A DNA stretch of 4,116 nt, from the IMG/VR virus record IMGVR_UViG_2675903409_000013; one strand, 5' to 3'. Positions within the stretch are counted from its first letter, which is position 1. Each line of letters opens with the position of its first letter. Shown one piece after another: positions 1-4,116 of the stretch. Made by a program: the position numbers and the translations under genes. The notes beneath the pieces are model-generated. The model was not told where the DNA came from. It made no database searches and saw nothing but the letters and a program-made list of their open reading frames with translations. The DNA is from a virus (lineage: Duplodnaviria > Heunggongvirae > Uroviricota > Caudoviricetes).

Positions 1-345
1 ACGGTCAGTACAGCGTTATTCTGTTGGTGGAAGGATTCCCGCCGTCACATGCCGGGACCATCACTGTGTATGAAGATTCCCGACCCGGTACGCTGAATGA
101 TTTTCTCGGTGCCATGACGGAGGATGATGCCCGTCCTGAGGCACTGCGCCGTTTTGAACTGATGGTGGAAGAGGTGGCGCGTAACGCGTCCGCGGTGGCA
201 CAGAACACGGCAGCCGCGAAGAAGTCAGCCAGTGATGCCGGCACATCTGCCCGTGAGGCGGCAACCCATGCGACTGATGCTGCAGGCTCAGCGCGTGCAG
301 CCAGCACGTCAGCCGGACAGGCCGCGACTTCGGCTCAGGAGGCGT
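1..345 (+). CDS. stf: Side tail fibre protein (Stf family), N-proximal fragment; 5' partial (open from window start), 3' end interrupted by N-run
   Basis: Frame 3 (codons from nt 3) is open with no stop from nt 3 to 345. Translation GQYSVILLVEGFPPSHAGTITVYEDSRPGTLNDFLGAMTEDDARPEALRRFELMVEEVARNASAVAQNTAAAKKSASDAGTSAREAATHATDAAGSARAASTSAGQAATSAQEA resembles the region around residue 55 onward of phage lambda Stf as I recall it. The ORF-track entry 24..608 is this frame with an arbitrary TTG start; its stop at 606-608 is an artefact of reading through the gap. Confidence 0.8.
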
Positions 346-595
346 NNNNNNNNNNNNNNNNNNNNNNNNNNNNNNNNNNNNNNNNNNNNNNNNNNNNNNN
401 NNNNNNNNNNNNNNNNNNNNNNNNNNNNNNNNNNNNNNNNNNNNNNNNNNNNNNNNNNNNNNNNNNNNNNNNNNNNNNNNNNNNNNNNNNNNNNNNNNNN
501 NNNNNNNNNNNNNNNNNNNNNNNNNNNNNNNNNNNNNNNNNNNNNNNNNNNNNNNNNNNNNNNNNNNNNNNNNNNNNNNNNNNNNNNNNNNNNNN
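346..595. other. Assembly/scaffold gap (run of 250 N)
   Basis: Uninterrupted N characters. Flanks are near-identical overlapping sequence (105-345 vs 596-836), and the reading frame differs across the run (frame 3 before, frame 2 after), so the N length is not a true distance. Confidence 0.95.
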
Positions 596-836
596 CTCGG
601 TGCCATGACGGAGGATGATGCCCGTCCTGAGGCACTGCGCCGTTTTGAACTGATGGTGGAAGAGGTGGCGCGTAACGCGTCCGCGGTGGCACAGAACACG
701 GCAGCCGCGAAGAAGTCAGCCAGCGATGCCAGCACATCAGCCCGTGAGGCGGCAACCCATGCGACTGATGCTGCAGGCTCAGCACGCGCAGCCAGCACGT
801 CAGCCGGACAGGCCGCGTCGTCGGCTCAGTCAGCAT
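596..836 (+). repeat. Near-identical second copy of 105-345 (segmental duplication or contig-end overlap across gap 1)
   Basis: Direct comparison: about 7 substitutions over the first ~233 bp (e.g. agTgatgccGgcacatcTgcc vs agCgatgccAgcacatcAgcc); the last ~8 bp of block A diverge. Both copies encode LGAMTEDDARPEALRRFELMVEEVARNAS... Confidence 0.9.
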
Positions 837-2049
837 CTTCCAGCGCAGGAACGGCATCAACAAAGGCCAGTGAAGCATCGAAAAGTGCTGCTGCTGCAGA
901 GTCCTCAAAAAGCGCGGCGGCCACCAGTGCCGGTGCGGCGAAAACGTCAGAAACGAATGCTTCAGCGTCACAACAATCAGCAGCCACATCTGCATCCACC
1001 GCGACCACGAAGGCATCAGAAGCTGCGACCTCGGCCCGGGATGCGGCGGCCTCAAAAGAAGCGGCAAAATCATCAGAAACGAACGCATCATCAAGCGCCA
1101 GTAGTGCAGCTTCCTCGGCAACGGCGGCAGGAAATTCCGCGAAGGCGGCAAAAACGTCCGAGACGAACGCCAGGTCTTCTGAAACGGCAGCGGGACAGAG
1201 CGCCTCGGCTGCGGCAGGCTCAAAAACAGCGGCTGCGTCGTCTGCCAGTGCAGCGTCAACAAGTGCCGGGCAGGCCTCAGCCAGTGCCACCGCCGCCGGA
1301 AAATCGGCAGAAAGCGCCGCATCATCCGCTTCAACAGCCACAACGAAGGCTGGCGAAGCCACTGAACAGGCCAGCGCAGCAGCGAGGTCTGCTTCCGCAG
1401 CGAAGACATCCGAAACGAACGCGAAAGCGTCGGAAACAAGCGCAGAATCCTCAAAAACGGCTGCCGCATCGTCAGCCAGTTCGGCGGCGTCATCGGCATC
1501 ATCGGCGTCTGCTTCAAAAGATGAGGCGACCAGACAAGCGTCAGCAGCGAAGAGCAGCGCCACGACGGCATCCACGAAGGCGACAGAGGCTGCTGGCAGT
1601 GCGACGGCGGCAGCTCAGAGCAAAAGTACGGCGGAATCCGCGGCAACGCGCGCCGAGACAGCAGCAAAACGGGCAGAGGATATTGCATCCGCCGTGGCGC
1701 TTGAGGATGCGAGCACGACGAAAAAGGGGATAGTACAGCTCAGCAGTGCGACCAACAGCACTTCCGAGTCACTGGCGGCAACGCCAAAGGCAGTAAAAGC
1801 AGCCTATGACAATGCAGAGAAACGTCTGCAGAAAGACCAGAACGGTGCTGATATCCCCGACAAGGGCCGCTTCCTGAATAACATTAATGTTTACAGCAAA
1901 GGTGAAGTGGATAAGAAAAAGGGGATGCGAAAATACACTTTCTCTGCTCCTGCAAATGCAGTAAGCGGTAAGTGGTATCCTATAGTCTTTCGCCGATCTG
2001 GAGGCGGTACCGATGAATTAGCCTCACGAGTTGTGATAACTACTTATTC
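596..2049 (+). CDS. stf: Side tail fibre protein (Stf family), shaft region plus start of an alternative distal domain; interrupted at both ends by N-runs
   Basis: Frame 2 (codons at 596, 599, ...) has no stop from 596 to 2049. Translation begins LGAMTEDDARPEALRRFELMVEEVARNAS (same as block A), continues through about 336 aa of Ala/Ser/Thr-rich heptad-periodic sequence, then [30 protein letters not shown] (conserved phage tail-fibre repeat), then NAEKRLQKDQNGADIPDKGRFLNNINVYSKGEVDKKKGMRKYTFSAPANAVSGKWYPIVFRRSGGGTDELASRVVITTYS. This frame is absent from the ORF track, presumably because it has no in-window stop. Confidence 0.8.
689..1696 (+). repeat. Heptad-periodic (21-nt period) Ala/Ser/Thr-rich coding repeat array, 48 heptads, consensus x-(S/T)-S-A-x-x-A
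   Basis: Hand translation of frame 2: every 7th codon from 707 to 1673 is a GCN Ala codon (47 consecutive heptads). The position 3 residues earlier is mostly Ala (otherwise E/K) and the one before that mostly Ser. Nucleotide sub-repeats of the form AAAACGTC(A/C)GA(A/G)ACGAA(C/T)GC recur at 938, 1064, 1148 and 1400, spaced by multiples of 42 nt. Confidence 0.75.
1724..1810 (+). repeat. Single conserved phage tail-fibre repeat unit ([29 protein letters not shown]) in block B
   Basis: Translation in frame 2. The motif is the conserved tail-fibre repeat shared among lambdoid/P2/T-even tail fibre proteins (Pfam 'phage tail fibre repeat' family, from memory). Confidence 0.75.
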
Positions 2050-2320
2050 NNNNNNNNNNNNNNNNNNNNNNNNNNNNNNNNNNNNNNNNNNNNNNNNNNN
2101 NNNNNNNNNNNNNNNNNNNNNNNNNNNNNNNNNNNNNNNNNNNNNNNNNNNNNNNNNNNNNNNNNNNNNNNNNNNNNNNNNNNNNNNNNNNNNNNNNNNN
2201 NNNNNNNNNNNNNNNNNNNNNNNNNNNNNNNNNNNNNNNNNNNNNNNNNNNNNNNNNNNNNNNNNNNNNNNNNNNNNNNNNNNNNNNNNNNNNNNNNNNN
2301 NNNNNNNNNNNNNNNNNNNN
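2050..2320. other. Assembly/scaffold gap (run of 271 N)
   Basis: Uninterrupted N characters. Sequence right after the gap (2321-2606) is a near-identical copy of 1487-1772 located before it, so the contig ends overlap rather than abut. Confidence 0.95.
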
Positions 2321-2606
2321 GCGTCATCGGCATCATCTGCGTCTGCTTCAAAAGATGAGGCGACCAGACAGGCGTCAGCAGCGAGGGGCAGCGCCACGAC
2401 GGCATCCACGAAGGCGACAGAGGCTGCTGGCAGTGCGGCAGCGGCAGCACAGAGCAAAAGTACGGCGGAATCCGCGGCAACGCGCGCCGAGACAGCAGCA
2501 AAACGGGCAGAGGATATTGCATCCGCCGTGGCGCTTGAGGATGCGAGCACGACGAAAAAGGGGATAGTACAGCTCAGCAGTGCGACCAACAGCACTTCCG
2601 AGTCAC
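2321..2606 (+). repeat. Near-identical second copy of 1487-1772 (segmental duplication or contig-end overlap across gap 2)
   Basis: Direct comparison: 7 substitutions in 286 bp (e.g. catcGgcg/catcTgcg, gaAgAgc/gaGgGgc, gcgAcGgcg/gcgGcAgcg, gcTcag/gcAcag), same reading frame (offset 834 = 3 x 278). The copies diverge right after gagtcac (ctg at 1772 vs cag at 2606). Confidence 0.9.
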
Positions 2607-4116
2607 AGGCGGCAACGCCAAAAGCCGTTAAGGCCGCGTATGACCTGGCTAACGGGAAATACACCGCACAGGATGCAACGACAGCACAGAAAGGGATAGT
2701 TCAGCTCAGCAGTGCGACTAACAGCACTTCCGAGTCACAGGCGGCAACGCCAAAAGCCGTTAAGGCCGCGTATGACCTGGCTAACGGGAAATACACCGCA
2801 CAGGACGCTACGACAGCACAAAAAGGAATTGTCCAGCTCAGTAGTGCAACCAACAGCACATCTGAAACGCTTGCTGCGACACCGAAAGCAGTGAAAGCAG
2901 CTAATGACAATGCGAATGGTCGGGTACCTTCTGCCCGTAAGGTGAATGGTAAGGCGCTTTCAGCGGATATAACACTGACGCCGAAAGATATTGGTACGCT
3001 TAACTCAACAACAATGTCATTCAGCGGTGGTGCTGGTTGGTTCAAATTAGCAACGGTAACCATGCCACAGGCGAGTTCTGTTGTTTCAATTACGTTGATT
3101 GGTGGCGCTGGATTTAACGTGGGGTCACCTCAACAGGCAGGTATATCTGAACTTGTTTTACGTGCAGGTAATGGTAATCCGAAGGGGATTACTGGTGCTT
3201 TATGGCAGCGCACATTGACAGGGTTTACAAATTTTGCCTGGGTTAATACATCTGGTGATACTTACGATATTTACGTTGCAATCGGAAATTATGCGACTGG
3301 TGTAAATATTCAATGGGATTATACCAGTAATGCCAGCGTGACGATTCATACGTCACCAGCATATTCTGCTAATAAGCCGGAAGGGTTAACGGACGGTACA
3401 GTTTATTCACTCTATACGCCATCAGAGCAGTTTTATCCGCCTGGCGCACCAATCCCGTGGCCATCAGATACCGTTCCGTCTGGCTATGCCCTGATGCAGG
3501 GGCAGGCTTTTGACAAATCTGCATACCCGAAACTTGCAGCGGCTTATCCGTCAGGCGTGATCCCTGATATGCGTGGCTGGACGATTAAGGGCAAACCTGC
3601 CAGTGGTCGGGCCGTATTGTCTCAGGAACAGGACGGCATTAAATCGCATACCCACAGCGCCAGCGCATCCAGTACGGATTTGGGGACGAAAACCACATCG
3701 TCGTTTGATTACGGCACTAAATCCACGAATAACACTGGTGCGCATACCCATAGTTTAAGTGGCAGCACGAATGCAGCTGGTAATCACAGCCATAGAGATG
3801 GCCGTCGATTTAACCCCAGTGTTTTTAAAGATACTTATCAATATGGTTATACAAGCTCAGGTCAAAATACCTGGGGTGTACAAGGCTCAGTAGGTATGTC
3901 TACGGGGTGGTTAGCGAATACCAGTACAGATGGTAATCATAGCCACTCACTGTCCGGCACAGCAGCATCTGCAGGTGCACACGCGCATACTGTCGGTATT
4001 GGTGCTCATACGCACTCCGTTGCGATTGGTTCACATGGACATACCATCACCGTTAACGCTGCGGGTAACGCGGAAAACACCGTCAAAAACATCGCATTTA
4101 ACTATATTGTGAGGCT
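2321..4116 (+). CDS. stf: Side tail fibre protein (Stf family), distal shaft and C-terminal receptor-binding/tip region; 3' partial (runs off window end)
   Basis: Frame 2 is open from 2321 to 4116. Translation contains three tandem [25 protein letters not shown] units, then [80 protein letters not shown] ... [62 protein letters not shown]. This closely matches my recollection of the lambda Stf C-terminus, which ends ...FNYIVRLA, so the stop is expected 1-2 codons past the window. Confidence 0.85.
2558..2953 (+). repeat. Three tandem 132-bp (44-codon) tail-fibre repeat units: 2558-2689, 2690-2821, 2822-~2953 (third diverged)
   Basis: Units 1 and 2 both encode [44 protein letters not shown] and differ at 6 nucleotide positions, all synonymous third positions (aag/aaa, gta/gtt, acc/act, gat/gac, gca/gct, cag/caa). 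Unit 3 encodes [44 protein letters not shown]... with heavily recoded codons. Confidence 0.85.
3644..4045 (+). other. His-rich distal tip with seven H-x-H motifs (SHTHS, GAHTHS, GNHSHR, GNHSHS, GAHAHT, GAHTHS, GSHGHT); putative metal-binding needle-like region
   Basis: Motifs read directly from the frame-2 translation at about 3647-3655, 3743-3751, 3785-3793, 3938-3946, 3980-3988, 4007-4015 and 4034-4042. Similar H-x-H repeats in the T4 gp37 distal tip coordinate iron ions in the published crystal structure (from memory). Confidence 0.6.

Follow-up and report, generated by a model that had tools for sequence, protein, structure and literature searches.

Organization of the stf-like blocks in the window

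The analyzed window, which is the whole stretch of 4,116 nt, consists of three sequence blocks on the plus strand, A (1–345), B (596–2049) and C (2321–4116), separated by two scaffold gaps, N-run 1 (346–595, 250 N) and N-run 2 (2050–2320, 271 N). Block A lies inside an stf gene (gene nt 164–508, or 164–501 without the last 7 nt; reading frame 3). The window opens inside the PF08400 N-terminal domain, and block A comprises the end of this domain and the beginning of the Ala/Ser-rich shaft, with the terminal sequence ..GCTCAGGAGGCGT. Block B is the interior of a putative second stf paralogue (gene nt 268–1721, frame 2), and its 3′ end is a paralogue-specific module (1787–2049) without a Pfam match, which is missing from the gene type represented by A and C. 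Block C spans nt 1159–2954 of a 2961-nt stf gene and thereby its distal two-thirds (frame 2); the window ends 7 nt short of the stop codon.

The PF08400 profile was matched at positions 56–134 in block A (E = 8e-39) and at positions 90–134 in block B (E = 3e-14), while block C contained three matches to PF03406 (E = 1e-56), the Collar domain PF07484 (E = 6e-12) and the Phage_fiber repeat PF03335 (E = 2.5e-5). Three tandem 132-nt (44-aa) Phage_fiber_2 repeats (family D1) are located at 2538–2933 within block C; they are genuine (TRF period 132, 92% matches) and occur ungapped in complete genomes. A fourth, more distant copy of this repeat lies in block B (1704–1835). Complete stf relatives had the same distal architecture and PF08400 once per gene, whereas the literal scaffold repeats profile positions 90–134 of this domain at 596–836. 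The gene order in all annotated relatives was gpJ–lom–stf–tfa, and the window covers the gene interior only.

The genes matching in lambdoid phage records are annotated as side tail fiber protein. The best phage matches reached 95–97% identity over 56–92% of a block, and prophage alleles in complete E. coli genomes reached up to 99.8%. The products resemble the lambda-type Stf proteins (lambda stf, StfR of Rac and the Qin-locus stf) in the PF08400 N-terminal domain, the repetitive Ala/Ser/Thr-rich shaft, the Phage_fiber_2 repeats, the Collar domain and the HxH-rich C-terminus, and differ from them by nothing more than ordinary allelic mosaicism. Judging by sequence, each of the three blocks derives from the inside of a lambdoid side-tail-fibre (stf) gene.

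Repeated copies flanking the N-runs

A sequence-only reading of the same DNA had reported that the N-runs are flanked by overlapping, slightly different copies, and this was confirmed by direct alignment of both pairs. In pair 1, the copy in block A (105–345), assigned to the allele of one gene (gene 1), and the copy in block B (596–836), assigned to the allele of another (gene 2), had 11 mismatches per 241 nt (95.4% identity); without the divergent final 7 nt (339–345 and 830–836), there were 7 mismatches per 234 nt (97.0%; 105–338 and 596–829). In pair 2, positions 1487–1772 of block B (gene 2 allele) and 2321–2606 of block C (gene 1 allele) had 7 mismatches per 286 nt (97.6%). The likeness of pair 2 extends at 97% over 300 nt (1487–1786 and 2321–2620, family D3), beyond which B and C are unrelated and enter different modules, the divergence having previously been placed after 1772/2606. 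The identity of 97–98% proposed in that reading is valid for pair 2, but for pair 1 only without the tail, because its last 7 nt diverge. Both second copies begin at the first base following an N-run (596 and 2321); the first copy of pair 1 runs to the last base ahead of N-run 1, and the first copy of pair 2 stops about 263 nt short of N-run 2. Sequence blocks of 234–300 nt at 97% identity far exceed chance.

Codon reading also corroborated the substitutions G to S, KS to RG and T to A named earlier: the amino acid changes between the copies were G→S (240/731), K→R (1551/2385), S→G (1553/2387) and T→A (1604/2438), to which T→S (327–329) and E→S (339–341) are added in pair 1, whereas the remaining differences were third-position synonymous. 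Since the differences are mostly of the latter kind and all of them are present in other genomes, they represent real alleles rather than read errors.

Two continuations past 1772/2606 would also be expected from an invertible (Pin/Gin-type) segment at one locus, where alternative fibre C-termini are present in mixed orientations. A pinQ recombinase gene is located just 3′ of tfaQ in two related loci, L003 (NZ_AP022036) and L004 (NZ_CP189734), and the exchange of stf genes driven by invertases has been discussed (PMC3945230). However, the constant part should stay identical in this case, whereas differences of 2–3% were found both over the 286 nt before the divergence and in the N-terminal overlap. 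The gix/pix-like core motif is AAACCNNGGTTT, and scanning of the window for it with ≤2 mismatches revealed none. Pin invertase switching was rejected on account of these differences and the lack of a AAACCNNGGTTT-like site in the window, and inversion at one locus is the least probable of all the explanations considered.

Block A is read in frame 3, and blocks B and C are read in frame 2. The spacing between the copies is 491 nt across gap 1, which is not a multiple of three, and 834 nt across gap 2, which is; the literal junction thus breaks the frame at the former and keeps it at the latter, the N-run lengths being only estimates. When both overlaps are collapsed, one reading frame results, so the previous statement that collapse gives a single frame and that the literal scaffold shifts frame over gap 1 was borne out. 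These frames bear on whether the literal arrangement could be real, i.e., a tandem partial duplication in one very long fibre gene or N-runs masking real sequence; in the literal order, the N-runs would conceal unique sequence that links the blocks (approximately 250 and 271 nt). The frame-keeping spacing at gap 2, the internally repetitive shaft (families D2, D5 and D6) and the real 132-nt tandem repeats downstream, which vary in copy number, are compatible with such an arrangement. A frame break at gap 1 would argue against it if the estimated N-run length holds. Further arguments against it are that the duplicate copies start exactly at the N-run edges and that each copy is identical to an allele found elsewhere in another gene, a pattern that recent duplication within a single gene would not generate.

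Comparison with complete stf genes

According to gene-coordinate mapping, blocks A, B and C were all collinear and ungapped on complete stf genes, and their positions overlapped: the real offset between A and B is negative (−241 nt), and B and C are not separated at all, sharing gene coordinates 1159–1721. The literal A-B-C arrangement was found in none of the 41 related loci, nor among the complete-genome matches listed, the matches being single and collinear. Overlap 1 was matched in all 29 of the first loci and overlap 2 in 26 of them, once each, and the matches of A, B and C in the 12 later loci were likewise all single and collinear. The literal order requires the PF08400 end to occur twice and a mid-gene module to be followed by shaft sequence again; neither had a counterpart in these sets, and the literal arrangement is considered highly improbable. 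The same very low probability is given to its consequences, namely, a giant, possibly frameshifted stf in which two internal stretches are partially duplicated, or an intermediate of recombination between two prophage stf genes that was captured in the chromosome. Matches resembling stf were present in 4356–4656 of 5426 complete E. coli genomes, with a median of 2 places per genome and a maximum of 11–13, and strain MMC-J-0020 contained both gene types described below in prophages approximately 880 kb apart.

Block A was 99.1–99.4% identical to the 2961-nt stf of L003 and L004, the distinctive last 7 nt included. Block C was 99.6–99.8% identical, without gaps, to the stf of many complete E. 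coli genomes, and its first 342 nt, which include the second copy of overlap 2 (2321–2620), had no mismatches to L001, L003 and L004. Both A (99.1–99.4%) and C (99.4–99.6%) were found within one 2961-nt gene in L003, L004 and L028 (NZ_CM128549), where the distance between their starts is 995 nt, an exact match to the collapsed spacing. The collapsed path composed of A, B (837–1486) and C is 2791 nt; with 163 nt added before it and 7 nt after it, the total is 2961 nt, exactly the length of the genes bearing A and C. The exact 45-nt tail of block A was present in 23 IMG/VR contigs, of which 12 had the exact first 100 nt of C at the predicted distance of 695 nt; none of the 23 had N-runs or the whole of A, and an exact scan of genome contigs for the same tail gave 0 matches.

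The A tail was also joined to other distal modules, namely, a B-type tail in L019 and others in L005, L010, L015 and L024; for this reason, assignment of A and C to the same gene is likely, but not certain. If A, B and C each came from a different stf gene, the same artefact would involve three paralogues. The presence of non-C distal modules next to the exact A tail in these five loci agrees with three genes, as does the occurrence of up to 11–13 stf-like places per complete E. coli genome. However, every overlap is already explained by two genes, and A and C stand in one gene at the predicted spacing in most of the contigs and genomes with the A tail, so a third paralogue is a possible but rather unlikely contributor.

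Block B was collinear with the 3471-nt stf of L002, which adjoins potB, at 97.5% identity overall. Its ends (gene nt 268–508 and 1445–1721) were 100% identical to this gene, while its middle (gene nt 509–1158) was only 92% identical to the A/C-type genes. The 1787–2049 module was 100% identical to L002 and 99.6% identical to L029, and unrelated to the sequence at the same gene position in L001, L003 and L004 (~32% ungapped identity). Among known alleles, the best match to the whole of block B reached only about 98%; the block was tiled by four exact-match pieces that come from different loci, so B itself could be a natural mosaic or partly chimeric. A B-specific 86-mer was found in 11 IMG/VR contigs as well as in one complete genome, all of which differed from B. 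The middle of B was also considered as a collapsed copy of the gene 1 middle, which it probably is not, as approximately 51 of the 650 positions differ from the A/C-type genes.

Thus, the overlap copies match separately attested natural alleles (the 3471-nt and 2961-nt stf), which upholds the claim that two or more Stf-family genes are involved. The proposal that these genes share the N-terminus and shaft is correct but incomplete, since the two types also resemble each other distally, with 96% identity over 775 nt of the receptor-binding region. As alleles in two cells and paralogues in one cell are inseparable by sequence and would give the same contigs diverging by 2–3%, two strains with one stf allele each, sequenced together as a mixed culture or in a metagenome bin, were also considered. 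This is improbable: B and C run on into modules of different structure, as is typical of separate prophage stf genes, several stf copies per genome are the norm, and exact matching of 140 nt from block A (21–160) gave 0 hits in the metagenome contigs.

Probable interleaving of prophage stf genes in one scaffold

Taken together, the repeats at the N-runs are very probably an assembly artefact derived from at least two near-identical E. coli prophage stf genes; as such, they would be ordinary and would imply no biological duplication. The window would be a draft-assembly scaffold running through the stf of a lambdoid prophage of E. coli or a close relative. Judging from other strains, two or more stf paralogues most likely reside in different prophages of the source genome; these would be 92–100% identical in the N-terminal domain, the shaft rich in Ala and Ser and the distal region for receptor binding, and differ in the middle module. 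An assembler unable to resolve them would produce three contigs, which a scaffolder would chain with estimated gaps so that B from gene 2 falls between A and C from gene 1; gene 1 would be the 2961-nt gene, and gene 2 would be of the longer, 3240–3471-nt type. Contigs that overlap but differ by 2–3% would remain unmerged, so the same gene stretch would appear on both sides of each N-run, and approximately 650 nt of the gene 1 shaft would be absent from the scaffold. The joins may have been caused by paired reads cross-mapping in the shared regions. Two-gene interleaving appears to be the minimal and most likely model, favoured because one and the same gene carries A and C, spaced exactly as in the collapsed path, both in complete genomes and in the majority of IMG/VR contigs with the A tail. 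The earlier description of stf variants "collapsed into one scaffold" is not entirely apt as to the collapse, since the variants were kept apart, side by side. Mis-joining of contigs at the shared region, as proposed there, is supported by the overlapping gene coordinates; we infer the misjoin itself and the assembler mechanism rather than observe them.

False duplications in assemblies are known to be marked by a gap that separates the two copies within a scaffold (Ko et al. 2022, Genome Biol 23:205, PMC9516828, citing Kelley and Salzberg). The window resembles the published cases in having two slightly different copies on the same scaffold with a gap between them, the duplication being absent from better assemblies; here, the gap-free assemblies without the duplication, whose structure agrees with the collapsed one, come from other strains, as proxies. 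The published false duplications usually involve two haplotypes of a diploid, whereas paralogous prophage genes of a haploid bacterium would be involved here; also unlike in those cases, two contigs of one paralogue would enclose an entire contig (B) of the other. The stf/tfa regions of lambda, Rac and Qin have long near-identical stretches in one cell (De Paepe et al. 2014, PMC3945230). Repeats of this kind break short-read assemblies. The mosaic exchange described in that work is real in vivo recombination, whereas the window gives no sign of a real recombinant molecule.

The biological weight of the arrangement is small, as stf is a known, multi-copy and mosaic gene in E. coli and a classic short-read assembly trap. 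Nevertheless, a gene model over this scaffold is not trustworthy. Automatic annotation could yield a frameshifted pseudogene, a duplication or, because B and C are in frame, a chimeric B-gap-C fibre, from which host-range or receptor prediction would blend two fibres; prophage and tail-fibre counts of this assembly would be wrong too.

The N-run lengths of 250 and 271 fit no simple model: negative true offsets would predict minimal gaps, and derivation of the lengths from distances in the L002- or L029-type genes fails, as every expected gap is negative. Contig ends at de Bruijn repeat boundaries were considered as well. The ends of A and B and the start of C, which lies 17 nt before a mismatch, do not follow the repeat-boundary pattern, so the assembler cannot be deduced from them. 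Only the start of block B comes close to such a boundary; this block opens with a 128-nt exact run in common with A, near a k-mer of 127.

Composition of the window and placement of its blocks

The three blocks of determined sequence, A (1–345, open in frame 3), B (596–2049, open in frame 2) and C (2321–4116, open in frame 2), are separated by N-runs of 250 nt (346–595) and 271 nt (2050–2320). Each of the three comes from the interior of stf, the side-tail-fibre gene that lambdoid prophages carry. The Pfam profile PF08400 (prophage tail fibre N-terminal) was matched by block A at profile positions 56–134 and by block B at 90–134, and block C contained three matches to PF03406 (Phage_fiber_2), one to PF07484 (Collar) and a PF03335 repeat. 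Matching genes in lambdoid phage records are annotated as side tail fiber protein, with the gene order gpJ–lom–stf–tfa in annotated relatives. According to megablast, A-like and B-like sequences were present in 4,656 and 4,356 of 5,426 complete E. coli genomes, respectively, with a median of 2 and a maximum of 11–13 stf-like places per genome; the matches carry the annotation 'prophage tail fiber N-terminal domain-containing protein'.

Ungapped, collinear alignment to complete stf genes placed A at gene nt 164–508, B at 268–1721 and C at 1159–2954; since these coordinates overlap, the scaffold successively strings three pieces covering shared gene stretches. The collapsed path A + B (837–1486) + C was 2791 nt, which, with 163 nt before the window and 7 nt after it, gives 2961 nt, the exact stf gene length in four related loci (L001, L003, L004 and L028).

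The repeats that the sequence-only reading had described on both sides of the N-runs are real. Overlap 1 (105–338 and 596–829) contained 7 mismatches per 234 nt (97.0%), and overlap 2 (1487–1772 and 2321–2606) 7 per 286 nt (97.6%). The identity of 97–98% originally proposed therefore holds for overlap 2 and for overlap 1 without its final 7 nt (339–345 against 830–836), which diverge, but not for the full interval 105–345 against 596–836 (95.4%, divergent tail included). The copies do part into different sequence, although after 1786/2620 rather than after 1772/2606; beyond this point B and C are unrelated. Codon reading recovered all of the nonsynonymous changes named earlier (G to S, K to R, S to G and T to A) as well as T to S and E to S near the end of block A, all other substitutions being synonymous and in the third position. 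The copies lie 491 nt apart across gap 1, a spacing that shifts the frame of the literal scaffold, and 834 nt apart across gap 2, where the frame is preserved; once both overlaps were collapsed, a single reading frame ran through A, B and C, as had been claimed.

The first 128 nt of B (596–723) are exactly equal to positions 105–232 of A before the first mismatch, and a run of this length comes near to a k-mer of 127. When a k-mer-boundary pattern was looked for at the contig ends, only the start of B resembled one, so that the assembler is not inferable.

If the literal order were real, the window would represent a tandem partial duplication inside one gene. The frame-keeping spacing of 834 nt agrees with this, as does the internally repetitive shaft, although the former is a one-in-three coincidence, the N-run lengths being estimates, and the spacing across gap 1 breaks the frame. 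Neither overlap block occurred twice in any related locus compared: overlap 1 was found once each in 29 of the first 29 loci and overlap 2 once each in 26 of them, while in 12 later loci all matches to A, B and C were single and collinear. PF08400 occurs once in complete genes, whereas the literal scaffold doubles its profile positions 90–134 and would lead from a mid-gene module back into the shaft. Moreover, the two copies of each pair are identical to alleles that belong, in other genomes, to different genes, and a recent internal duplication is not expected to give this. The literal duplication is almost certainly not a biological feature.

Two stf gene types as probable sources of the blocks

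Block A was 99.1–99.4% identical (divergent tail included) to the 2961-nt stf gene of Qin-locus prophages in NZ_AP022036 (L003) and NZ_CP189734 (L004), and block C was 99.6% identical to the same genes, its first 342 nt being mismatch-free. The distance between the starts of A and C in these genes, 995 nt, equals the collapsed spacing. The exact 45-nt tail of A was detected in 23 IMG/VR contigs, 12 of which contained the first 100 nt of C, exact, at the predicted 695 nt. On balance, A and C appear to come from the same gene. A third paralogue among the sources of the blocks is possible, since some contigs (L019, L005, L010, L015 and L024) combine the A tail with other distal modules.

Two parts of B, namely, its overlap with A (gene nt 268–508) and its 3′ module (1445–1721), were 100% identical to the 3471-nt stf gene adjoining potB in NZ_CP054191 (L002), whereas the middle of B differed from A/C-type genes at approximately 51 of 650 positions. 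Past nt 1786, B consists of a module missing from A/C-type genes, whose Phage_fiber_2 repeats it replaces. This module (window 1787–2049; approximately 5455–6050 in L002) includes YDNAEKRLQKDQNGADIPDKGRFLNN and TFSAPANAVSGKWYPIVFRR and matched no Pfam profile, whether in the window or in the 1156-aa and 1079-aa complete relatives. The best known allele for the whole of B (596–2049) was approximately 98% identical; B is tiled by four exact pieces that stem from different loci, in order 323 nt from L002, 405 nt from L033/L036/L038, 342 nt from L019 and 384 nt again from L002, which may reflect natural stf mosaicism or a switch of the assembler path between paralogues.

Both gene types were present in the complete genome of strain MMC-J-0020 (NZ_CM128549), namely, a 2961-nt A/C-type gene (identity 99.1% for A and 99.4% for C) and, approximately 880 kb away, a 3240-nt B-type gene at bioA–ybhB (96.2% for B, 99.6% for its tail module). 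This strain probably shows what the source genome looks like; the scaffold itself turned up in none of the genome, viral and metagenome collections that were scanned. Two strains in one sample, each with its own stf allele, are a less likely source because several stf copies inside a single genome are the norm.

Near-identical stf genes occupy prophages at differing chromosomal sites: that of L001 adjoins ybhB, that of L029 (the B-type gene of MMC-J-0020) lies at bioA–ybhB, that of L002 adjoins potB, those of L003 and L004 lie at the Qin locus (ydfK–ydfJ), and that of L028 (the A/C-type gene of MMC-J-0020) adjoins a manganese catalase gene. The protein WP_072034704.1 was identical at two sites in two strains.

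At the Qin locus, the A/C-type stf is adjoined by tfaQ and, directly downstream of it, the recombinase gene pinQ (9471–10061 in both L003 and L004), which would favour a Pin-type inversion swapping fibre C-termini; the annotation of these loci shows no alternative fibre segment in between. Such an inversion was rejected, since the supposedly constant part differs by 2–3% and no gix/pix-like core, the motif of Pin-type inversion sites, was found across the window with up to 2 mismatches allowed.

Origin of the scaffold arrangement

The earlier proposal that at least two stf genes had been mis-joined was supported and refined by the overlapping gene coordinates and by the assignment of A/C and B to alleles of different genes; with high probability, the duplication is a scaffolding artefact built from at least two stf copies. 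The simplest model is two interleaved genes, gene 1 (A)–gene 2 (B)–gene 1 (C), in which approximately 650 nt of the gene 1 shaft would be missing from the scaffold. The N-terminal domain (exact runs of at least 128 nt), the shaft (92–98% identity) and the distal receptor-binding region (96% over 775 nt) are common to both gene types, and short reads or read pairs of one gene would therefore map onto contigs of the other. We infer that the scaffolder would then chain A to B and B to C, and that contig ends differing by 2–3% would for that reason be left unmerged and Ns put in. The N-run lengths of 250 and 271 match no model, every expected gap being negative. A gap flanked by slightly differing copies within a single scaffold is a hallmark of false duplication, and the window resembles published cases in this respect (PMC9516828); extended homology among the stf genes of lambda, Rac and Qin inside one cell has also been described (PMC3945230). 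The affected gene is a well-known, multi-copy, mosaic prophage gene, and in practice it follows only that neither gene models across the scaffold nor tail-fibre or host-range inferences across it are trustworthy.

Internal repeats of the fibre gene

The shaft (836–1700) is rich in Ala, Ser and Thr and made of degenerate short repeats, including 16 copies of a 30-nt unit (family D2, 60–83% identity, motif AAKTSETNA); this low-complexity periodicity makes assembly harder still. Three genuine tandem Phage_fiber_2 repeats of 132 nt (44 aa) occupy 2538–2933, the first two being mutually 92% identical, and a further copy lies at 1704–1835. The motif G[IVL]VQLSS occurred 0 to 4 times in the 41 related loci; thus, stf alleles differ in their number of repeats, and this is another spot where short-read assembly could err. 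Seven HxH motifs (HTH, HSH, HAH and HGH; 3647–4042) fall within the final 160 residues of block C, and a family of 26-nt repeats (D9, 3725–3945) lies at this end as well; motifs of this kind coordinate metal ions in the T4 gp37 fibre tip.
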